From positions 249,712-313,711 of the forward strand of contig CANPVM010000001.1 of assembly GCA_947581805.1 (NCBI GenBank): 64,000 bases of DNA, in the 5' to 3' direction. Source of the stretch: an uncultured Clostridia bacterium. Its GTDB lineage: Bacteria > Bacillota > Clostridia > TANB77 > CAG-508. Shown here piece after piece: positions 2,703 through 25,472 of this stretch. A model generated the notes under the pieces. It was not told the origin of the DNA. It did not search any database and saw only the letters and a list, made by a program, of their open reading frames with translations. Position 1 is the stretch's first letter; the number at the start of each line of letters is the position of its first letter. A program made the position numbers and the translations under genes.

Positions 2703-3899
2703 ATGAAAATAATTGGAATAGAAAACCAAGAAGAACAAGCAAAACAACTAAATCGAAAAAAAATGATTATAACTATTATTATCTCTATTATATTAATGAT
2801 ATTTCTTGTATTGTTTTGTTTTTATATAGGAAATAAATCCTTTCGTGACTTTATGGACAAATATGTATTAATGAAAAATGTAGTAGAAAATCACGTTAAT
2901 TCTATTAACATAGAGGAGACAGAAGGCTATGAGGTATATGCTTATGATAAATATATTAGCATCCTTCGTCAAAACACACTAACTGGTTATAATAGCTCTG
3001 GAAAAAAAGAATATGAATTAACTATTGAAATATCGAACCCTATTGTAGATACCAATAACCGATTTTTACTAATTGCAGAAAAGGGAAAACAAAAAATTTA
3101 CTTAATTTCTGGAAGTAACATTGTTTGGGAGAAAGAATTAGAAGGAAACATTAGTCGCGTTTCTGTTAACAAAAATGGATATGTATCTGTAGTGTTAACA
3201 GGAACCACGCATAAATCTGTTGTTCAAACTTTTGATGCACAAGGAAATCAAATGTTTAAAACATTCTTATCAAGTTCAATTGCTATGGACACCGATATTT
3301 CTTATGACAATAAGTATTTAAGTATTGCAGAAATAAGCACAAATGGTACTGCTACACAATCTATGATAAAAACCATTTCTATTCAAAAAGCACAAATGCA
3401 AGAAACAGTATCAGAAGCGATTATTTCTACAATAACTTCACCAAATGATAGTACAATTCTAAATCTAAAATATCAAGAAGGAAATAGACTAGTTTGTATG
3501 TATAATAATTCAATTCATGTTATTCAAAATGGAAAAGATGAGGAGTTATTAAACTTACAGGAAAAGCAAACAAAAATTGTTTTTGCAGATGCGGAATTAA
3601 CAAACTTTGCATTTCGAATCATAGAAAAAAGTGTACTATTAAGTACACAAAGTAGTGTGGAATTAGTAAACATTGCAAGCAAAAAAACAAATATTTATAC
3701 AGTAGATAGTGTTATAAAAGAGGTTTATACTTATGATAATTGTGTTGCATTAAATTTAGGGTCAGAAGTTCATTTTATTGGAACCAATGGATGGCTTAGC
3801 AAAAAATATATTTCATCACAAGAAGTAAGAAAAATTGTAATGAATTCTCATTTTGCAGGTATTATTTATCGTGACAAAATAGAAATTGTAGAATTCTAA
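2703..3899 (+). CDS. hypothetical membrane-anchored protein (single N-terminal TM, large extracytoplasmic domain)
   Basis: ORF with RBS taggag; N-terminal TM 'IITIIISIILMIFLVLFCFYIG'; no recognisable catalytic motif. Confidence 0.5.
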   Translation: MKIIGIENQEEQAKQLNRKKMIITIIISIILMIFLVLFCFYIGNKSFRDFMDKYVLMKNVVENHVNSINIEETEGYEVYAYDKYISILRQNTLTGYNSSGKKEYELTIEISNPIVDTNNRFLLIAEKGKQKIYLISGSNIVWEKELEGNISRVSVNKNGYVSVVLTGTTHKSVVQTFDAQGNQMFKTFLSSSIAMDTDISYDNKYLSIAEISTNGTATQSMIKTISIQKAQMQETVSEAIISTITSPNDSTILNLKYQEGNRLVCMYNNSIHVIQNGKDEELLNLQEKQTKIVFADAELTNFAFRIIEKSVLLSTQSSVELVNIASKKTNIYTVDSVIKEVYTYDNCVALNLGSEVHFIGTNGWLSKKYISSQEVRKIVMNSHFAGIIYRDKIEIVEF

Positions 3900-3912
3900 A
3901 AGGAGGAAAAAA

Positions 3913-4569
3913 ATGTCTATTATTATTGATTTAATCATTGTAGCAATTTTTGCTTTATGTATCTTTTTTGGATACCAAAAGGGATTAACAAAATGTATGA
4001 TAAAAATATTATCTTTTTTTATAGCTATTGTAGTGGCAGCCATTCTATTTAAACCAGTAAGCAATTTTATGATTCAAAATACACAAATAGATGATACCAT
4101 AAAAGAGGCAGTAGTTAATTTAGTTAGTGATGATATAGAAGATAATGGAGAAGTAAAAGAAGACACCAATCTTCCACAGGCAATGATAAATTATATTAAT
4201 GAAGCCGTAAAAAATGCAACTGAGGAAACCAAAAATAATGTTATCCAAGTAGCTGCAGAAGAAATTGCCACAACTACAGTCAATCTTGGAGTAGCTATTC
4301 TTTTATTTATTATAGTAAGAATTGGATTAATTTTTGTCAGCGCTTTATCAAAACTAATTACGGATTTACCAATTATTAAGCAATTTGATAAAACAGGTGG
4401 AATCTTATATGGAGCCTTAAAAGCATTGGTTATTGTATTTGTTATTTTAGCACTTATTTCTTTTATTAGCCCAATGATAGAGCAAACAGGTATTATTGTA
4501 GCAATTAATAAATCTTTTATTGGAAGTGCTTTATACAATCATAATATTTTATTAAATATAGTATTATAA
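3913..4569 (+). CDS. cvpA: CvpA-family membrane protein
   Basis: N-terminus 'MSIIIDLIIVAIFALCIFFGYQKGLTK' and overall 4-TM architecture characteristic of CvpA; RBS aaggagg. Confidence 0.6.
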   Translation: MSIIIDLIIVAIFALCIFFGYQKGLTKCMIKILSFFIAIVVAAILFKPVSNFMIQNTQIDDTIKEAVVNLVSDDIEDNGEVKEDTNLPQAMINYINEAVKNATEETKNNVIQVAAEEIATTTVNLGVAILLFIIVRIGLIFVSALSKLITDLPIIKQFDKTGGILYGALKALVIVFVILALISFISPMIEQTGIIVAINKSFIGSALYNHNILLNIVL

Positions 4570-8736: not shown

Positions 8737-8812
<76 letters not shown>

Positions 8813-8934: not shown

Positions 8935-10734
8935 ATGTCAGAAATCAAAGAAGAAATATTACAGCAATATGGTATCTATCAAAAAAGAAAATTAAAAGAA
9001 AATGAAAAGATGCAATTGCTAAAAATCAAACAAGAGATAGAAAAAATAATAAAAATACCAATAGAGAAATTATACTTAGCAGAAGAAGCGGCATGGGGAA
9101 AAGAGCCAGAGAAATCTGCTTATAGTATCTGTGTATTAGTAGATAAAAGGACCAAAGACTTAAGAGAAAAAATAGATTTACTAATTCCTTATGCAAAAAA
9201 TAAAAAAATAGATATTGCATTAAGAGCAATGTGCCAATTTGAAAAAAGAAAAATGATACCAACAGAAAAAGATTATTATATTCATCAATATGGTATTAAA
9301 GTATATGATAGTGGAAAAGAGCCAGAAATTAATGAAAGTTTAGGAGCTACGCAATACGGAAGATATATGGAATATCATAGGGAATTCAGAAACTTTCTTC
9401 ATACAAATGTAGACTATTGGATGAATGAAACTGTTAGAATATATACTTTAAAAATGGGATATGCACTTATTAGTCGAAATGCAGAATTAGAAAGAGATTG
9501 TAATTTTGCAAAATTAATAACAAAAGATAAAAAAATTATTAGCATGATAGACTCTTATTTAGAGCAAACTGAGCAGAAAGCAAAAGAAAAAATATTAGAT
9601 GAGTTTGAAGAATATGTAACTAGTTTAAAACAAGTAAAATTTTCAGCAAAATTAGAAGAAAAACCAACCATGAAGGTATACGAAAAATTATTAAAAAGAA
9701 AACAGAAGCAAGGAACATTAGATATAAAAACCCTAACAAAAGACGATTTATATACTATGTATATTATACAGGATATTGATACTAGCCTAATAGCAGAATT
9801 ATATGGAGTAGAAAATAAAAAAATAGCAGAGAAAAGAAATTCTTGGCAAATCAAGAGAAGAGAAGCGGCCTTTACCAATACAGATGAAATAATAAAGAAA
9901 ACAATAGAATCCGCAGAAATGCAAAGCTCTATATATGCTTATGCTTTACTAAAGAAAAGTGGAATTATGGGCTTCGAAAAATGTACATTACCAATTCTAA
10001 AATATATGCTAGATAATGAAGTTTATTTATTAAAAGAATTTTGGCAATTTACTAAAAATGAAAAAAATAAAGAAGAAAAATTAATTTTTGGAGACACAAA
10101 ATATTCCTATTGTCAAGCAAGTATGGCTGTAGAACTATTATTACAAAACAACTTAATAAAAGAGGTAGATTTTAAACAATATCAAATTACAAAAGAAGGG
10201 AAGGAGTTAGTTTGGTATTGCATACAAAATGATATAGAAGAGATTACTATTCCAATTATTAATAAAAAATTTAAAAATGTTCAATATTATGAATTATATT
10301 ACACAGAAGAGTATCCTACTGATATCGAAGAAGTTACATGGGAAAAATTGTACCATAAATGGAATGAATATTGTCATGAAAACTTCCCTGAATTATTAAG
10401 AGAAGAAAATTTACCAATTGAAAATGAAGTAAAAAATGAAGAAGAGATTGCATTAGTTTGGATGTACTTATTCTTTTCTAATTTAGAATGGAGAAATCTT
10501 TTTCCAAAGCAATGGGAAAAAACAATCTTTATAGGTATCAATGATATTTTAAATCCAATTCGCCAACAAATAAAAGAAAAGTCAATTTCAGTTGTTATGA
10601 AAGAGGATTTTCAATTAACTCAATTTTTAGATATTTCAAATGTAACAAAATATATAGAAATAGAAAAAGTAGAAGATATGGTAGAATATGCAGCAGTTTC
10701 CTGTGCGTATTTAATAAAAATAAGAGAAAGGTAA
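8935..10734 (+). CDS. hypothetical protein, island operon gene 1 (599 aa); central ~190-aa module paralogous to N-terminus of gene 2
   Basis: RBS agaggg; residues ~245-440 ('KVYEKLLKRKQKQGTLDIKTLTKDDLYTMYI...IAELYGVENKKIAEKRNSWQIK...LLKEFWQF...AVELLLQNNLIKEVDFKQYQITKEGKEL') align with residues 1-195 of the next ORF; HTH-like character. Confidence 0.6.
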   Translation: MSEIKEEILQQYGIYQKRKLKENEKMQLLKIKQEIEKIIKIPIEKLYLAEEAAWGKEPEKSAYSICVLVDKRTKDLREKIDLLIPYAKNKKIDIALRAMCQFEKRKMIPTEKDYYIHQYGIKVYDSGKEPEINESLGATQYGRYMEYHREFRNFLHTNVDYWMNETVRIYTLKMGYALISRNAELERDCNFAKLITKDKKIISMIDSYLEQTEQKAKEKILDEFEEYVTSLKQVKFSAKLEEKPTMKVYEKLLKRKQKQGTLDIKTLTKDDLYTMYIIQDIDTSLIAELYGVENKKIAEKRNSWQIKRREAAFTNTDEIIKKTIESAEMQSSIYAYALLKKSGIMGFEKCTLPILKYMLDNEVYLLKEFWQFTKNEKNKEEKLIFGDTKYSYCQASMAVELLLQNNLIKEVDFKQYQITKEGKELVWYCIQNDIEEITIPIINKKFKNVQYYELYYTEEYPTDIEEVTWEKLYHKWNEYCHENFPELLREENLPIENEVKNEEEIALVWMYLFFSNLEWRNLFPKQWEKTIFIGINDILNPIRQQIKEKSISVVMKEDFQLTQFLDISNVTKYIEIEKVEDMVEYAAVSCAYLIKIRER

Positions 10735-10737
10735 AAC

Positions 10738-12000
10738 ATGGAGATATATCAAAAATTATTAAAGAAAAAGCAAGCAGGTGAAAAAATAGAATTAAGTAAT
10801 TTAACAAAAGATGAGCTTTATTTTATTTATATAGAAGAAGGTCATATTGTTAAGGATATTGCAAATTTATTTAACACATCGCAAAACGAAATAAATAAGT
10901 TAAGAAATAAGTGGAATATAAAGGTAACCCAAGAATTCATGACAGATCGTGAAACAATGAAATATGTTTATGAAAAATTTGGAAGCGGTTATGAGTATGA
11001 TTATCATTTATATTTATTAAAAGAACATATGGGACTTCCTACATTCGAAGACTTATTTATTCCATCTTTAATGCTGTTAAAAGATGAAAAAGTTCATAAT
11101 ATAAAAGAATTTTGGCATTTGACAGATAAAAACTATAAAATAAGCGAAGCAGAATTACAATATTGTGTATCATATGAAAATCCAACGTTATTTTATAGAG
11201 CTGATTGGTGTTTAGAAGCTATGTTAAAAGCAAACTTAGTAGAAGAAATCGCCTTTCGAGAATATAAAATAACGAAGCAAGGAGAAAAATTTTTAGAAGA
11301 CTGTATTAAAGAAGAAGTCAATCAATTTGGCTTAGGATATTTATTAAAGAAGTGCTCTAATTCTAATTTATCTTTATCAAATAATGTAAAAGAAACACAA
11401 CAAAAAACAAAAAAGGAAGAAAGTATTGTAAGTTCTAAGGTAGAAGAAACAAAAGAGGAACAAGAAAAAACAATCAAAGAGCAAGTTTCTAACTTAAAAC
11501 AAATTGATTATGTAGAAAATATAACAAAGAAGAAATCTTCAAGTAAAAGTACAAATAAATCAAAAGCAGTAAAAACTAATTTTACAAAAATGAATGAAAT
11601 AAAAACAGACTTTGGAAAAAAATGTGAAAGAATTATTTACGAACATGAAAAAGAAAGACTAAGGCAAGAAGGACAAGCAGAAAAAGCAGAACAAGTAATT
11701 TGGGCTTCCGAAGAAAAAGGAGACGGATTAGGTTATGATATTGAATCCTTTAAAAAAATAAATGGCAAATATGAAAAAATATACATTGAAGTAAAAGGAA
11801 CCGATAAAGATTGTTCAGAACCATTTGATGTTAGTATTAATGAAGTGATGGTATCAGAACAATTAAAAAATTCTTATTATATATATCGTATTGCAAAAGC
11901 AAATACAAAGAAACCTATTTTTTATAAAGTAAAGGGAAGCATAGCAGAAAACTTTGATTTAACAGCAATTAAATTTAGAGCTTCTAGGAGGAGTAAATGA
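10738..12000 (+). CDS. DUF3883 (NO VEIN C-terminal-like, restriction-endonuclease-fold) domain protein with N-terminal HTH-like module
   Basis: 4-nt gap after gene 1. C-terminal 'GKKCERIIYEHEKERL...VIWASEEKGDGLGYDIESF...IYIEVKGTD...SINEVMVSEQLKNSYYIYRI' matches NOV_C/DUF3883 pattern (GE..E..L...V.WVS...GYDI.S...IEVK.T...S.NE...A...Y.IYRV); Lys/Ser-rich linker. Confidence 0.7.
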   Translation: MEIYQKLLKKKQAGEKIELSNLTKDELYFIYIEEGHIVKDIANLFNTSQNEINKLRNKWNIKVTQEFMTDRETMKYVYEKFGSGYEYDYHLYLLKEHMGLPTFEDLFIPSLMLLKDEKVHNIKEFWHLTDKNYKISEAELQYCVSYENPTLFYRADWCLEAMLKANLVEEIAFREYKITKQGEKFLEDCIKEEVNQFGLGYLLKKCSNSNLSLSNNVKETQQKTKKEESIVSSKVEETKEEQEKTIKEQVSNLKQIDYVENITKKKSSSKSTNKSKAVKTNFTKMNEIKTDFGKKCERIIYEHEKERLRQEGQAEKAEQVIWASEEKGDGLGYDIESFKKINGKYEKIYIEVKGTDKDCSEPFDVSINEVMVSEQLKNSYYIYRIAKANTKKPIFYKVKGSIAENFDLTAIKFRASRRSK

Positions 12001-16673: not shown

Positions 16674-17268
16674 GAAATATAGGTAAGCGTTTTATAGTAA
16701 TTTATTGTTACAATTTAGTTTTATAACAAATTTTAATAAGAATTGCTTGTGGCAACGGAAAGTTTAGCATATAATCTTTTTTAAAAGTATGTATTTAATA
16801 TATTAAAAGATAATATTAAATCAATTAGAAAATCAAAAGAGCTTTCACAAGAAAAATGAACTGTTAAATTAAATGTTGTTAGATAAACAATATTTAAATG
16901 AGAGTAAGGATTATATATTCTGAATTCTGAATTGCTAGTTTCATTATCTGAAGCACTAGACACATATGTAAGTACGCTGCTTGGAAAAAATATTCATGAA
17001 GAAAGAGCAGATAATTTAAAAAAATTGTTGAAAAACTAAAAATAATAAATTCACAATATCTAGGGGAAAATAAAGAGTGTGATAAGCCAAAAGTGGGATT
17101 CATACTCTTAAATTTTGTGTCAAATGTAATTAAATAGTGCAAAATATAAAATAAATAACCTAATAAATATTTTATACATTATGAAAAAAGTATTGACTTA
17201 TATATGTATTCATGGTACAATAAAAATGCCATCAAAAAATGGCACATCAATAAAGGAGATGGCATATA

Positions 17269-17625
17269 ATGGATACTATAGGAGGTCAAATACAAAGTCA
17301 GAATTTACTGAAAATTAAAAAAATTGTAGATAAAGATAATAATGGAGATAAATTCATTATTATCAGGACTGAAAAAAATAAAGAGTTTATGAGGGAGTAT
17401 AACTTAAATCGAGAAGACATTAAAGATATTATAAGAAGACTCTCAGTAGATGATTGCTTCGCTGGTCCAGAGAAAGACAGAAATCCACAATATGAAGGGT
17501 GGATATTTAAATTTAATCCTTTATTCGAAGACACTAAGCTTTATATTAAGATTAGAGTTGAGAGTACGGAAAAATCAGTTTGTTTGTCAGTACATGAATT
17601 TGGTAAATATGATGAGGTGAATTAA
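17269..17625 (+). CDS. MqsR-like toxin (putative RNase toxin of a type II TA pair)
   Basis: 118 aa; 'DIKDIIRRLSVDDCFAGPEKDRN...GWIFKF...LYIKIRV...VCLSVHEF' parallels MqsR 'CNVIIGLSESDFYKSM...WQDVYRP...VYLKITV...LIVSFKEK'; 1-nt gap to Zn-finger/HTH partner, same order as mqsRA. Confidence 0.55.
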   Translation: MDTIGGQIQSQNLLKIKKIVDKDNNGDKFIIIRTEKNKEFMREYNLNREDIKDIIRRLSVDDCFAGPEKDRNPQYEGWIFKFNPLFEDTKLYIKIRVESTEKSVCLSVHEFGKYDEVN

Positions 17626-17626
17626 A

Positions 17627-18643
17627 ATGAGAGAATATTGTCCATATTGTAAAAAAGAAGTAGATTATAAAATAGAAAAAAGGGACGTAAAAGAATTTAG
17701 AGGAATAGAAATAAATACCTATGAAAATGTAGCTGTATGCAAAGAATGCCATCAAGATTTATATGTAAATGAAATTGAAGAAAAGAATAATGAAAGAATA
17801 TATGAACTCTATAGAAAAAAAGCAAACATAATAAAACCACAAGATATAGTTAATTTAAGAAAAAAATATGATATATCACAAAGAGAATTAACGGCTATTC
17901 TTGGATTTGGAAAAATGACTATTAATAGATATGAAAGAGGCGGAGTTCCAACAAAATCTCAAAGTGATTATATAAGATTATTGATTGATAATGATAATAA
18001 GTTTGTAGAAAAAGTAAAAGAAGCATACAAAAATGGTAGTATTAATGATAAAACATACGAAAAAATAGTGGCTCAAGAATTAAATATTAGTGTTAATAAA
18101 GAAGAAATTCAAGATAATATAAGAAGATATTTAAAATATGCATTAAGTAGGAAACCTGATATATATAACGGTTATAAATCATTAGATATAGAAAAAGTTG
18201 AAAATATTATATCTTATATTGCTAGCAAAGTAAAAAATCTAACTATTACTAGTTTAAATAAATATTTATGGTTTATAGATATATTATCTTTTAATCAAAG
18301 AAGTGTATCTATTACTGGTTTAACATATCAAAATCAAAAATTTGGACCTACCATAATAGATAAGAAATATGATGAAATATCATTATTAGATGATAAATAT
18401 ATTAGAGAAGATATTGAAACTGAAAATGGTAATACAACAAAAATTATAAGTAATGGTAATTATAATTTAGACAAAATAAGTGATACTGAAAAAGAAATAA
18501 TTGATATAATAATAAAAATACTAAAGAATAAAACTGTGACAGAGATATCTGAATTGTCACATAGAGAGGAAGGATGGAAAAAAACTAAAAGATTTGAAAA
18601 GATACCATTTGATTATTCTATGAATTTAAATATAATTAAATAA
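17627..18643 (+). CDS. MqsA-like antitoxin: N-terminal CxxC...CxxC zinc finger + XRE-type HTH, fused to C-terminal Panacea (DUF4065) domain
   Basis: 'CPYCKK...CKEC' zinc ribbon; HTH 'ISQRELTAILGFGKMTINRYERG'; C-terminal 'LNKYLWFIDILSFNQRSVSITGLTYQNQKFGPTI' fits DUF4065 core (L.KL.Y.D......ITG..Y.....GP). Confidence 0.65.
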   Translation: MREYCPYCKKEVDYKIEKRDVKEFRGIEINTYENVAVCKECHQDLYVNEIEEKNNERIYELYRKKANIIKPQDIVNLRKKYDISQRELTAILGFGKMTINRYERGGVPTKSQSDYIRLLIDNDNKFVEKVKEAYKNGSINDKTYEKIVAQELNISVNKEEIQDNIRRYLKYALSRKPDIYNGYKSLDIEKVENIISYIASKVKNLTITSLNKYLWFIDILSFNQRSVSITGLTYQNQKFGPTIIDKKYDEISLLDDKYIREDIETENGNTTKIISNGNYNLDKISDTEKEIIDIIIKILKNKTVTEISELSHREEGWKKTKRFEKIPFDYSMNLNIIK

Positions 18644-18711
18644 ATAATCAAAAGCAAAATATTTTAGTTTTTTTACTAAATATTTTGCTTTTTTGTTTTA
18701 AAAGGAGGTAA

Positions 18712-19074
18712 ATGATGTACCAATTAGTAAGTTCATTTAATAGTTTCATAAGAAATGAAATAATAACTAATCCTTTTGAATATATGTTTCAAAATCCAAT
18801 TATAGCAATATTATTTTTTTCTCTATTTGGGAGCAAAGTATTAAACAATATTGCCTATACAATGTGTGGAATATTTTATAAAAGTAGAAGTAATAAGGTT
18901 TTAGGAAGTATTGGTTATATGATTTTTTATTGTATAAATGTACAAGTACTTATAAAACTATGTCAATGGTTTCAAAATATCACTTTAATAATGTTTATAT
19001 ATATGGTATTTGTAATAGTAATGTTTATTGTGTTAAGTAAAGTGAAAAGTGTAATAAAACAAAATATAATATAA
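18712..19074 (+). CDS. small polytopic membrane protein (120 aa)
   Basis: RBS aaggagg; 3-4 hydrophobic helices. Confidence 0.4.
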   Translation: MMYQLVSSFNSFIRNEIITNPFEYMFQNPIIAILFFSLFGSKVLNNIAYTMCGIFYKSRSNKVLGSIGYMIFYCINVQVLIKLCQWFQNITLIMFIYMVFVIVMFIVLSKVKSVIKQNII

Positions 19075-19892: not shown

Positions 19893-19910
19893 GCTCATAA
19901 CCCGAAGGTC
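19893..19910 (+). repeat. attR-like 18-bp direct repeat of tRNA-Met anticodon arm (identical to 8767-8784)
   Basis: Exact 18/18 'gctcataacccgaaggtc' in non-coding DNA 11.1 kb downstream of the tRNA. Confidence 0.7.
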
Positions 19911-20205
19911 ATCAGTTTAAGATTTATCCTCGTAACTAGCAAAATAAAAGGTTATATTAATTAACTAAAACCAAATTTTATAATTTATTCCGAAACTACC
20001 ATTATATCCTGAAGGTATAGAAATCTTGTTTTATCTTCAATAATTCTTCCATATTCAATTAATTTAGTATCATATATACACATAATAAATACAATGTATT
20101 TTTAATTAATATTTTCAAAATATAACAAGAATTGACAAGAAAACACAAATTTATATTTTAATAATCAAAAATATATGATAGAATATAACAAAGGAGGAGA
20201 TAGAA

Positions 20206-20961
20206 ATGGTAACACACATTCAAAAAGGGCACCCAGAAGAAGTAAAAAACAAAAGAACAATGAGAATAAAAGAAGCAATCAGCTTCTCAACTGGAACAAA
20301 AGAAAAGCCAGATATGCATATTATTGGAGAAGTAAATGGTAATAAAATATTTTTCTTAAAGCCAGGGAAAGAATTCTTTAGAGAGAAAAAAAGAAATATA
20401 AATGACATGACTCCTTGTGTAGGAAATTTATATGAAAAATACTCTTTTGGAGATATATGGAAAGATATGTTAAACCTTTCTGTCCACATAAATGAAGAAA
20501 CGTATAAACAATTAAATGTCTTAATATATAGATTAGCATATTTAATGGATTGTACAATAATAGATAAAAAAGTAAGATACCAACCAGAAGGTGAGGTTCT
20601 TGAAACAATAAATAAAATACAAAATGAAATTGATACTGTTGGATATCAATTTAAAGTATTAGAATTTTTGAACTTTATAGATATTTTAAGTTGGAATGAA
20701 GATGTAAAATACCAACCAGATTGCCTATTTGAAAAAGAAAGAGAAAAGGTAGGAAGAATCAACACCATCTTAAGTTTAATTTCAATACCATTAATATTTA
20801 AACAATTTGTTGATGAAATTATCAAAAACAAGCAATCTTTAGAAAAATTAAATTATTCATTATTAGTAGATGTTGCGCAAAACTTTTCTAGAACTAGAGG
20901 AGTCCATCCAATATCAAATAAGCAACTAATTCAATATTTAAGTCCATATTTAACTGAATAA
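20206..20961 (+). CDS. hypothetical protein, candidate type II restriction endonuclease partner of adjacent methyltransferase
   Basis: 251 aa, RBS aaggagg, directly upstream and co-directional with the C5-MTase; no recognisable motif, so assignment is positional only. Confidence 0.3.
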   Translation: MVTHIQKGHPEEVKNKRTMRIKEAISFSTGTKEKPDMHIIGEVNGNKIFFLKPGKEFFREKKRNINDMTPCVGNLYEKYSFGDIWKDMLNLSVHINEETYKQLNVLIYRLAYLMDCTIIDKKVRYQPEGEVLETINKIQNEIDTVGYQFKVLEFLNFIDILSWNEDVKYQPDCLFEKEREKVGRINTILSLISIPLIFKQFVDEIIKNKQSLEKLNYSLLVDVAQNFSRTRGVHPISNKQLIQYLSPYLTE

Positions 20962-21060
20962 AAGAAGAAAACTATTGACAACAAACAAATGTTTATATAT
21001 AATAAAAACAAAAGAATAATATAAAATAATAACAAGAAAACAAAAAGGAGTACTACATAA

Positions 21061-22260
21061 ATGATAGAAAAAACAGTTTGTGAATTATTTGCAGGAGTTG
21101 GAGGATTTAGATTAGGACTAGAAAAAGAAAATCCAGAATGGAATACCGTATGGGCCAATCAATGGGAACCAGGAAAGAAAAACCAATATGCCTTCGATTG
21201 CTATGTATCACATTTTGGTGAAAGCGAAAACTATGTTAATGAAGATATTGCAAATGTAGATAAAAATATTATTCCAGAACACAATCTATTAGTAGGCGGA
21301 TTTCCTTGCCAAGACTATTCAGTAGCAAGAACAGGGGCAGAAGGAATCGATGGAAAAAAGGGAGTACTATGGTGGCAAATTAGAGATATATTAGAAAAAA
21401 AGCAACCTAAATTTGTACTATTAGAAAATGTTGATAGACTATTGAAATCACCAACAAAACAGAGAGGAAGAGACTTTGGTGTTATATTAGCATGCTTTAA
21501 TGATTTAGGATATAGTGTGGAATGGAGAGTAATCAATGCAGCAGATTATGGATTTGCCCAAAAAAGAAGAAGAACATTCATATATGCAACGAAAAATAGC
21601 ACTACTTATTACAATTCAATAAAAAATAAAAGCTTTGAAGAAATTATCCATAAAGATGGTTTTTTTGCCAAAGAATTTAAAATACAAGAGAATACAAAAG
21701 GAATTGCGCAAGAATTCAAATATAAAGATATATATGAAGTATCAGACAATTTTAAAATGGCATTTGAAAACGCAGGAATTATGAAAGATAATCAGATATA
21801 TATAGAAAAAGTAGAACCTAAATATATTGAGCCAACAAAATTAAGAGAAGTACTGGAAGAAGATGCAGATAAAAAATATTATGTAGTAGGAAATATAGAA
21901 AAATGGAAAGAATTAAAAGGTCCTAAAAAAATTGATAGAGTAAGCAAAACAGGATTTAAATATGTCTTTTCAGAAGGTGGCATGTTATTTCCAGATGCAT
22001 TAGATAGGCCAGCTAGAACTATGCTAACAAGTGAATCTAGCGTTAATAGAAGCTCTCATATAATAGAAGATCCAAAGAAAAAAGAATTAAGAATATTAAC
22101 TCCAATAGAAGCAGAAAGGATAAATGGATTTGATGACAACTGGACAAATACAGGAATGCCAGAAAAATTTAGATATTTCTGTATGGGAAATGCCTTAGTA
22201 GTTGGATTAATAGAAAAAATGGCAAATAGATTAGATGATATATTTGCACAAGAAAATTAA
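21061..22260 (+). CDS. DNA (cytosine-5)-methyltransferase (Dcm/type II m5C MTase)
   Basis: Motif I 'FAGVGGFRLGL', motif IV 'GGFPCQDYS', motif VI 'LLENVDRLL', motif VIII 'FIYAT' region, C-terminal 'GNALVVGL'; RBS aaaggag. Confidence 0.9.
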   Translation: MIEKTVCELFAGVGGFRLGLEKENPEWNTVWANQWEPGKKNQYAFDCYVSHFGESENYVNEDIANVDKNIIPEHNLLVGGFPCQDYSVARTGAEGIDGKKGVLWWQIRDILEKKQPKFVLLENVDRLLKSPTKQRGRDFGVILACFNDLGYSVEWRVINAADYGFAQKRRRTFIYATKNSTTYYNSIKNKSFEEIIHKDGFFAKEFKIQENTKGIAQEFKYKDIYEVSDNFKMAFENAGIMKDNQIYIEKVEPKYIEPTKLREVLEEDADKKYYVVGNIEKWKELKGPKKIDRVSKTGFKYVFSEGGMLFPDALDRPARTMLTSESSVNRSSHIIEDPKKKELRILTPIEAERINGFDDNWTNTGMPEKFRYFCMGNALVVGLIEKMANRLDDIFAQEN

Positions 22261-23930: not shown

Positions 23931-25472
23931 ATGTTATCAATTGTAAAAAGTATGTCACTAAGTGGTCTAGATGGCTATCTTGTTTCTGTGCAAGTAGATG
24001 TTTCCGCAGGTATTCCTGCATGGGAAATCGTGCGGACTTCCTGATACTAGTGTCAGAGAATCCAAAGAAAGAGTAAAAACAGCTATTAAAAATTCTGGCT
24101 ATGAATTATTAAGTAGAAAAATTGTAGTGAATTTAGCTCCAGCCGATACCAAAAAAGAAGGTTCTTTCTTTGATTTACCAATTGCCATTGGAATCTTAAC
24201 CTGTCTTGGAGAAATTAGGCAAAGTAAACTAGAAAACATAGCGTTTCTAGGCGAGTTATCTTTAGACGGAAGTTTAAATCAAATCAATGGAATTTTACCT
24301 ATGTGTATTGAAGCAAAAAAGTTAGGAATTGAAAAAATGGTAGTGCCAATACAAAATGCCAAAGAAGCGGCAGTGGTAAAGGGTATTCAAATTATTGGCG
24401 CAAATACTCTGAGCCAAGCAGTAGAATATTTAAATGAAAGAGAAGATATTAAGCCATATGAAATAAATATGGAAGAATTATACCAAGAGGCAGAAGAGGA
24501 GAAATTTGACTTTTGCGAAGTAAAAGGTCAAGAAAATATTAAAAGGGCAATTGAAGTAGCAGCAGCTGGTGGTCACAATATTCTACTAATTGGAAATCCA
24601 CGGCTCACGGAAAAACCATGATGGCAAGAAGAATTCCATCTATTTTACCAGATTTAAGTTTTGAAGAAGCCTTAGAAACAACAAAAATACATAGTGTGGC
24701 AGGTCTTTTAAGCAAAGAGATCCCATTTATTATGGCAAGGCCATTTCGTGCGCCACACCATACTATTTCTACCACCTCTTTAGTAGGTGGAGGCAGAATT
24801 CCAAAACCAGGAGAAATTAGTTTAGCTCATCATGGAGTTTTATTTTTAGATGAACTGCCAGAATTCCAAAAAAGTACTTTAGAAGTAATGCGTGGACCAT
24901 TAGAAGATAAATTAGTAACAATAGCAAGAGTAAATAGTACACTAACATACCCTTGTAATTTTATGCTAGTTGCTTCTATGAATCCGTGCCCTTGTGGCTT
25001 TTATGGCTCCAAGCAAAAAGAATGTACTTGTCAGCCACAAGCTATTAATAAATATTTAGCTAAAATTAGTGGTCCATTATTAGATAGAATAGACATTCAA
25101 ATTGAAGTATCTTCAGTAAGTTATCATCATTTAAAAAAAGATACACCAGAAGAAACTTCAATGCAAATAAAGAAAAGAGTAAATGAGGCAAGAAAAATAC
25201 AATTAGAAAGGTATAAAGAAGAAGGTATTTATTCTAATAGCGAATTAACACCTAAATTACAAGAAAAATACTGTGCTTTAGGAAAAGAAGAAAGCATGCT
25301 TTTAAAGCAAGCATTTGATAGTTTAAATTTAAGTGCAAGAGCTTATGGCAGAATTCTAAAAGTAGCAAGGACTATTGCAGATTTAGACAGAAAAGAAAAT
25401 ATAGAAGTTTCCCATATTGCAGAAGCTATTCAATATAGAAGTTTAGATAAAAAATATAGGAAAGTTATATAA
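23931..25472 (+). pseudogene. comM: comM/yifB (Mg-chelatase-like AAA+ competence protein) split by three single-C insertions (24033, 24601, 24608)
   Basis: Frame 1 'MLSIVKSMSLSGLDGYLVSVQVDVSAGIPAWEIV' then stop. Deleting c24033 restores '...EIVGLPDTSVRESKERV'. Walker A reads 'GNPRLTEKP*' but is 'GNPGSGKTMMARR' after removing c24601 and c24608. C-terminal half 24618-25472 carries 'GVLFLDELPEF' sensor region. Confidence 0.8.

Follow-up and report, generated by a model that had tools for sequence, protein, structure and literature searches.

The DNA analyzed here, referred to as the window, is a 64,000-nt stretch from an uncultured Clostridia bacterium (GTDB lineage Bacteria; Bacillota; Clostridia; TANB77; CAG-508; GenBank assembly GCA_947581805.1, contig CANPVM010000001.1, positions 249,712 to 313,711 of the forward strand). 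It contains a two-gene cassette of about 1.5 kb that is very probably a self-contained type II toxin–antitoxin (TA) unit of the MqsR:PanA class, with promoter, operator, toxin, antitoxin, and terminator of its own. A gene for an MqsR-like toxin (17269–17625; 118 aa, stop TAA) is followed by a gene for an antitoxin of the MqsA-Panacea (PanA) type (17627–18643; 338 aa, start ATG). Both open reading frames (ORFs) lie on the forward strand, and one nucleotide separates the toxin stop codon from the antitoxin ATG; the toxin-first order and the 1-nt gap are as given in a preliminary description made from the sequence alone. A Shine-Dalgarno GGAG (17254–17257) lies 11 nt 5′ of the toxin start, and the antitoxin ATG has GAGGTG 9 nt 5′ of it.

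A single promoter and a single terminator enclose the pair. A consensus scan places a predicted sigma-70-type promoter on the forward strand at 17193–17221 (TTGACT, a 17-nt spacer, and TACAAT preceded by an extended TG; 10 of 12 consensus matches), and the arrangement TTGACT-17-TGnTAmAAT is found at the equivalent position in about 50 related loci. RNA folding predicts an intrinsic terminator at 18650–18698 on the same strand, consisting of an AT-rich hairpin (18650–18692; −15.7 kcal/mol, z −5.8, with 0 of 200 shuffled sequences equally stable) and a U-run; the window as a whole is AT-rich (approximately 26%–30% GC). Other loci resemble the window in DNA sequence from approximately 17165–17216, at the −35 box, to approximately 18640–18710, just past the terminator, where the similarity stops in most of them. 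The DNA upstream of the cassette varies among groups of loci. Because the similarity spans only this interval, the pair appears to travel as a discrete unit of about 1.5 kb. Directly 3′ of the terminator (18712–19074) is a gene for a predicted membrane protein of 120 aa that matches no family; it accompanies the cassette in 17 of the loci that were fetched, and in that subset the similarity reaches approximately 19100.

No NCBIfam model matched the toxin, and a phmmer search with its single sequence against the sequences of the Protein Data Bank (PDB) gave nothing relevant, so that recognition of its relatives of solved structure required a family profile and a fold search. An exhaustive HMMER search with the toxin yielded 238 cluster representatives, of which 95 were aligned (alignment A1); 75 of the 95 match the Pfam family MqsR_toxin (PF15723), the best with an E-value of 8.4e-10. 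Searched against the PDB, the A1 profile has Escherichia coli MqsR as its top match (3HI2_B, E 0.0065), and hhalign aligns it to E. coli MqsR over 86 columns with 94.3% probability and an E-value of 1e-7 (the E. coli sequence used is consistent with the 3HI2_B residues in the PDB match). The same structure is recovered with an AlphaFold2 model built on A1 (predicted local distance difference test [pLDDT] 93.9, predicted template modeling score [pTM] 0.86): in a Foldseek search of the PDB, chains D and B of 3HI2 rank first (probability 1.00, target template modeling scores 0.76 and 0.73, root-mean-square deviation ~3 Å), and two further RNases of the RelE superfamily, HigB2 and BrnT, come next. 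By profile–profile comparison and predicted fold, then, the 118-aa protein is MqsR-like, as the preliminary description had proposed. Y81, K83, and K96 of E. coli MqsR align with Y92, K94, and H109 of the toxin; among the 95 relatives, with identities as low as 25%, K94 is the same in all, and Y92, H109, S107, D70, and P67 are nearly invariant.

The antitoxin has three parts, and the zinc ribbon, XRE-type helix-turn-helix (HTH), and C-terminal DUF4065 domain that had been read from its sequence are all recovered by family models. The MqsA-like head (residues 5–130; 17639–18016) comprises a zinc ribbon with ligands C5, C8, C38, and C41 and an XRE-type HTH (approximately residues 65–125); it matches MqsA_antitoxin (PF15731; residues 5–111, 44.3 bits, cutoff 30), the NCBIfam model for the type II TA system antitoxin MqsA family (TIGR03830; residues 5–130, 91 bits, cutoff 61.8), and HTH_3 (residues 76–109), and in phmmer searches the E. 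coli MqsA structures 3GN5, 3O9X, 2KZ8, and 3FMY (E ~8e-5). A helical linker without a family match (approximately residues 131–209; 18017–18253) is the most variable part of the protein. It leads to the Panacea domain (SocA_Panacea/DUF4065, PF13274; residues 210–318, 18254–18580), which scores 68.5 bits against a cutoff of 25.7 over the full profile (positions 1–113 of 113) and includes, as residues 210–243, the peptide LNKYLWFIDILSFNQRSVSITGLTYQNQKFGPTI that the preliminary description had quoted. Across 28 antitoxin relatives with identities as low as 41%, neither the four cysteines nor the HTH motif SQREL..LG.GKMTINRYE.G varies, and conservation extends to the Panacea motifs LNKYLWxID, TGLxY...GP, and SHxExxW.

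The −10 box is directly followed by TGCCATCAAAAAATGGCA (17227–17244), a candidate operator of the antitoxin HTH. Within the window it is the sole match to the palindrome GCCATCAA/TTGATGGC, of which it is a degenerate copy. In 68 of 84 loci, the 200 nt preceding the operon contain the core GCCA-N8-NGGC; off-target matches number about four in 508 kb. The palindrome accompanies the antitoxin gene in any arrangement, whether that gene is first, second, or alone: it occurs 5′ of antitoxin-first operons (L066, L069, L071, L072, L080, and L083) as it does of toxin-first ones, and also 5′ of antitoxin genes that stand alone (L010, L047, L050, L076, and L079). Distant loci have better palindromes, including the perfect 16-bp ideal form GCCATCAATTGATGGC in L071 and GCCATCAAATGATGGC in L046 and L075. 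The distance to the first gene varies among loci, from −28 to −157. Because the position of the core varies, and includes sites upstream of antitoxin-first operons, a DNA site is favored over an element of the mRNA leader. This conserved palindrome beside the promoter is probably the operator that the MqsA-like HTH would bind; it is an addition of the present analysis, a predicted operator for this clade of Clostridia antitoxins. The palindromes of E. coli mqsRA have the form ACCT-N(2-4)-AGGT, from which the operator predicted here differs.

A third half-site, GATGGCAT (17258–17265 on the forward strand; 17254–17265 with the GGAG), overlaps the Shine-Dalgarno region and is complementary to ATGCCATC (17226–17233); GGAGATGGCAT is kept only in the closer clade. 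An RNA hairpin formed by ATGCCATC and GATGGCAT to mask the ribosome-binding site was considered as the principal explanation of these repeats and rejected: variants break the pairing without compensation (GATAGCAT in L014, GATGACAT in L015, and GATTACAT in L033), and the distal arm is missing in more distant clades.

Database searches found 1482 relatives of the antitoxin (E ≤ 0.001) and 369 of the toxin. We retrieved 80 loci from contigs representing one genome per species; most belong to metagenome-assembled genomes of Clostridia that inhabit the gut of rabbit, ruminants, and humans. Antitoxin relatives at a greater distance (42%–47% identity) come from Clostridium, Romboutsia, Paraclostridium, Thermoanaerobacter, Caloramator, and Syntrophomonas. 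The identical antitoxin is present on two further metagenome contigs with unchanged neighbors, and full-length relatives are carried by plasmids of Clostridium estertheticum and C. tagluense, by Bacteroidota plasmids, and by human-gut phage contigs. An MqsR-like gene adjoins the antitoxin gene in 70 of the 80 loci, with the toxin first in most of the 70.

Every part of the pair is under purifying selection. Pairwise medians of the ratio of nonsynonymous to synonymous substitution rates (dN/dS, NG86 method) are 0.125 for the toxin and 0.18 for the whole antitoxin; within the antitoxin they are 0.21 for the zinc ribbon, 0.12 for the HTH, 0.25 for the linker (the highest value), and 0.17 for the Panacea region (residues 201–338). 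Values of 0.12–0.25 throughout indicate that all parts of both proteins are maintained. Since the adjacency recurs in so many loci and both genes are under such selection, the pairing of toxin and antitoxin is far beyond chance.

Other arrangements occur among the loci. Six antitoxin genes are without an adjoining MqsR-like gene (L010, L019, L047, L050, L073, and L079); the palindrome is kept in L010, L047, L050, L073, and L079, none is present in L019, and a transposase-like fragment lies upstream of the orphan antitoxin in L010 and L019. A distant clade (44%–46% antitoxin identity) has the gene order antitoxin, MqsR-like protein, and 640-aa N-6 DNA methylase (PF02384, with Eco57I-like similarity), and the same palindrome approximately 135–157 nt upstream of the antitoxin gene. 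These genes lie at approximately 3000–6500 in L066, L069, L071, L072, and L080 and at 2489–5985 in L083, the C. estertheticum plasmid pCF008-B; the set is a conserved three-gene cassette that links the TA pair to a methylase. One genome carries two diverged copies of the cassette approximately 6.5 kb apart on contig CAKOXT010000001.1 (L027, 79512–86516; L030, 85974–92987), whose antitoxins are 76% and 73% identical to that of the window.

Across 56 loci, each measured against the window sequences, toxin identity follows the identity of the zinc ribbon most closely of all antitoxin domains (r = 0.97 overall and 0.91 in the close clade); the corresponding values are 0.87 and 0.71 for Panacea and 0.84 and 0.63 for the linker. 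Six loci (L020, L021, L022, L024, L027, and L031) are mosaic: relative to the window, they have 83%–95% identity in the toxin, 90%–98% in the zinc ribbon, and 89%–94% in the HTH, and only 57%–63% in the linker and 71%–72% in Panacea, a pattern that points to recombination at the boundary between HTH and linker. The mosaic antitoxin genes are placed at approximately 3001–4014 in their loci. Such a pattern would be expected if zinc ribbon and toxin co-evolve and the C-terminal half of the antitoxin is exchangeable.

Panacea antitoxins were defined by Kurata et al. (2022, PNAS; PMC8832971), who found MqsR-like proteins to be their commonest recognized toxin partner (n = 90) and HTH extensions on 343 PanAs, and who point to a chapter of 2013 in which an alternative MqsR antitoxin was already described as containing DUF4065. 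An MqsR:PanA pair from Bacillus fungorum was subsequently tested and its antitoxin listed as “Panacea; ZBD (MqsA); HTH,” ZBD being the zinc-binding domain (Ernits et al. 2023, PNAS; PMC10440598). In truncations of that PanA, the ZBD or ZBD-HTH neutralizes the toxin and Panacea or HTH-Panacea does not; its HTH is predicted to dimerize, a sensory role is favored for Panacea, and substitution of the predicted catalytic tyrosine Y97 of the toxin abolishes toxicity (Ernits et al. 2023). A search of the available literature from 2023 onward on the function of Panacea found nothing beyond that paper. The architecture of an MqsR-like toxin with a zinc ribbon-HTH-Panacea antitoxin is thus already known and tested, and the present pair is a new, distant, but ordinary member of the class. 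The preliminary description had suggested an uncommon hybrid, a view that neither the published counts and the B. fungorum pair nor the relatives found here support: the best 120 of the 1482 antitoxin relatives, which are 86%–100% identical, all carry both PF13274 and PF15731, and the name “type II TA system antitoxin MqsA family protein” is already given by NCBI's PGAP to the full-length relatives on the plasmids of C. estertheticum and C. tagluense.

The pair shares with B. fungorum MqsR(D2):PanA (WP_099686063.1/WP_099686064.1) the toxin-first order, the ZBD-HTH-Panacea antitoxin, and a catalytic-type tyrosine near the toxin C-terminus; Y92 is probably the counterpart of Y97 of the B. fungorum protein. 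It differs in its host, an uncultured gut Clostridia bacterium of low GC content (~27%), and the sequences are distant. With E. coli MqsR/MqsA (YgiU/YgiT; 3HI2, 3GN5, and 3O9X) it shares the toxin-first order, the toxin fold, the CxxC...CxxC zinc ribbon and XRE-type HTH of the antitoxin head, and a palindrome in its own promoter. The E. coli antitoxin ends after the HTH (131 aa), whereas the present one is approximately 200 residues longer and includes Panacea. As in PanAT systems generally, the cassette is a conserved pair of adjacent genes, one for a Panacea antitoxin and one for a small toxin; many PanAs, in contrast, consist of Panacea alone or have a simple HTH or PAD1 extension, and neutralize other toxin folds, whereas here the MqsA head is complete.

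Taken as a whole, the following model is in our judgment highly likely: a type II system with an MqsR-type RNase, neutralization by the zinc ribbon, autorepression at the operator, and an accessory, possibly sensory, Panacea domain. The toxin would be an endoribonuclease of MqsR/RelE fold that arrests growth through mRNA cleavage, and the 1-nt gap would allow the antitoxin gene to be translationally coupled to the toxin gene. The N-terminal zinc ribbon of the antitoxin would bind and neutralize the toxin, while the HTH would dimerize on the palindrome beside the −10 box (GCCATCAA/TTGATGGC) and repress the operon. Panacea, rather than neutralizing, would have an accessory function; most likely it would be a sensor or stability switch and set the timing of toxin release, as upon phage infection or loss of the element. 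For RNase activity, neutralization through the zinc ribbon, autorepression, and the part played by Panacea, the model draws on analogy with E. coli MqsRA and the tested B. fungorum MqsR:PanA.

Several observations weigh against this model. The closest B. cereus-group plasmid pair retrieved, taken as a proxy for the B. fungorum system though perhaps not its orthologue, shares only approximately 30% identity with the antitoxin head and 28% with a portion of the toxin, so that the B. fungorum result is transferred over a long distance. The toxin itself matches PF15723 over profile positions 6–95 of 95 with 21.6 bits (E 3e-4), below the gathering cutoff of 26.2. Comparison of the E. coli MqsR catalytic residues K56, Q68, Y81, and K96 indicates by alignment that the active site is a variant of the E. 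coli one: K56 aligns with A65, Q68 falls in an insertion without a counterpart, and the position of K96 is occupied by H109. With two of the four positions lacking an equivalent and lysine replaced by histidine at a third, activity and cleavage specificity may differ from those of E. coli MqsR. The correlation between toxin and zinc ribbon is confounded by linkage, since the codons of the zinc ribbon adjoin the toxin gene. The AlphaFold2 model of the antitoxin (pLDDT 61.8, below 50 in the Panacea region) was built on a shallow alignment of sequences 86%–94% identical and was too poor for a fold search or for judging domain packing. Neither protein has a significant match in PADLOC-DB v2, which gave only weak HTH matches (E > 0.02).

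The cassette lies within a probable genomic island, as the preliminary description had proposed. A tRNA-Met gene identified by ARAGORN (8737–8812, forward strand) forms its left border, and a partial direct repeat of the tRNA 3′ half, found by repeat search (19893–19936, forward strand), is its probable right border; the repeated segments (8767–8810 and 19893–19936) are 44 nt long and 80% identical, the first 18 nt exactly so. A tRNA 3′ half repeated 11.1 kb downstream is the signature of an integrated island. Among the ten larger island ORFs scanned, the Pfam, NCBIfam, and PADLOC matches suggest no integrase. The cassette's neighbors within the island include a protein with Mrr_N and NOV_C/DUF3883 domains (PADLOC PDC-S36 and PD-T4-1) and a Schlafen-group-3/DUF2075 helicase (PADLOC PDC-S41); the segment 8935–16276 also encodes a 599-aa protein without a match and proteins of 338 and 263 aa of no recognized family. 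Direct repeats approximately 1070 nt apart (9648–9704 with 10716–10772, and 10011–10052 with 11082–11123) suggest that the genes for the 599-aa protein and a 420-aa protein share a duplicated segment.

Just outside the partial tRNA repeat, at 20206–22260, is a pair of genes: one for a type II C5 cytosine methyltransferase (PADLOC MTase_II, 562 bits) and, preceding it, one for a 251-aa protein without a family match that may be its restriction endonuclease partner. The flanking genes are housekeeping genes (comEA-like, maf, comM, and dprA). A ComM/Mg-chelatase-like gene is split over two overlapping ORFs (23998–24621 and 24618–25472), one with ChlI N-terminal and Lon_C-like domains and the other with the Mg_chelatase domain and the C-terminal domain that belongs to it; the split may reflect a frameshift, a pseudogene, or an error in sequencing.

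From this context, a role of the pair in addiction or abortive infection is plausible. Abortive infection can be put forward as a tentative possibility, one that is compatible with the type II mechanism described above: Panacea would sense a phage cue and release the RNase. The tRNA-Met-flanked island of 11 kb with its defense-like neighbors (the Mrr_N/NOV_C protein and the helicase inside, the C5 methyltransferase just outside), the movement of the cassette between contexts as a discrete unit, the occurrence of full-length relatives on human-gut phage contigs, and the preference of Ernits et al. (2023) for a sensory Panacea are all consistent with such a role. Set against this, PADLOC models match neither protein, chromosomal TA cassettes are also explained by addiction or selfish persistence, and the orphan antitoxins of L010, L019, L047, and L050 would also be expected under anti-addiction or decay.

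It is improbable that Panacea itself neutralizes the toxin, as it does in Panacea-only PanAs such as Bartonella PanAT, leaving the MqsA-like head as a DNA-binding autoregulator only. Direct neutralization by Panacea is known from some PanAT pairs (Kurata et al. 2022; Ernits et al. 2023), and the purifying selection on this domain would agree with it; in the B. fungorum system, on the other hand, the ZBD suffices and neither Panacea nor HTH-Panacea neutralizes. In the present clade the zinc ligands are invariant, toxin divergence tracks the zinc ribbon better than it does Panacea, and the mosaics exchange the linker and Panacea while keeping toxin and zinc ribbon, all of which weighs against this alternative.

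The variant active site and the sub-threshold Pfam score could alternatively mean that the 118-aa protein is a catalytically dead relic of MqsR and the pair purely a transcriptional regulator. We think this very doubtful in view of the strong purifying selection on the toxin and of the conservation of K94, Y92, H109, S107, D70, and P67 among its relatives. Histidine commonly stands in for lysine as the general acid/base in RelE-superfamily RNases. The tyrosine aligned with E. coli Y81 is kept, and the B. fungorum toxin requires its catalytic tyrosine Y97 (Ernits et al. 2023). The least probable alternative is that the antitoxin acts like SocA, the ClpXP adaptor of the type VI SocAB system of Caulobacter, after which the shared family PF13274 is named (Kurata et al. 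2022): SocB, a sliding-clamp-binding inhibitor of replication, is unrelated to the MqsR fold of the present partner, the PanAT pairs tested by Kurata et al. form complexes and were concluded to be type II, the antitoxin has a dedicated MqsA-type zinc ribbon for neutralization, and nothing in the pair suggests a ClpXP-adaptor mechanism.

A more specific proposal, which we consider rather unlikely, is that the MqsR:PanA clade of Clostridia is an abortive-infection module in which the linker and Panacea, conserved yet exchangeable, form the sensor of phage or stress, the mosaics retarget the RNase, and the variant Tyr/Lys/His site, without K56 and Q68 of E. coli MqsR, confers a different cleavage specificity. 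If it were true, mosaics that combine the same toxin and zinc ribbon with another Panacea would redirect the same RNase to different triggers, and the predicted operator GCCATCAA/TTGATGGC would offer a handle on when the module is derepressed.

The architecture is widespread in gut Clostridia, and the present pair requires no new category. Also new here are the sharp boundaries of the cassette (approximately 17170–18707), the purifying selection on each of the domains, the closer correspondence of toxin divergence with the zinc ribbon than with other parts of the antitoxin, and the location in a tRNA-Met island with defense-like neighbors. What the pair adds to the published systems is an operator sequence that can be tested, natural linker-Panacea mosaics, and a variant toxin active site. 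The mosaics fit the published idea of Panacea as an accessory, possibly sensory module, and together these findings could help to settle the function of Panacea where an antitoxin possesses a separate domain dedicated to neutralization.

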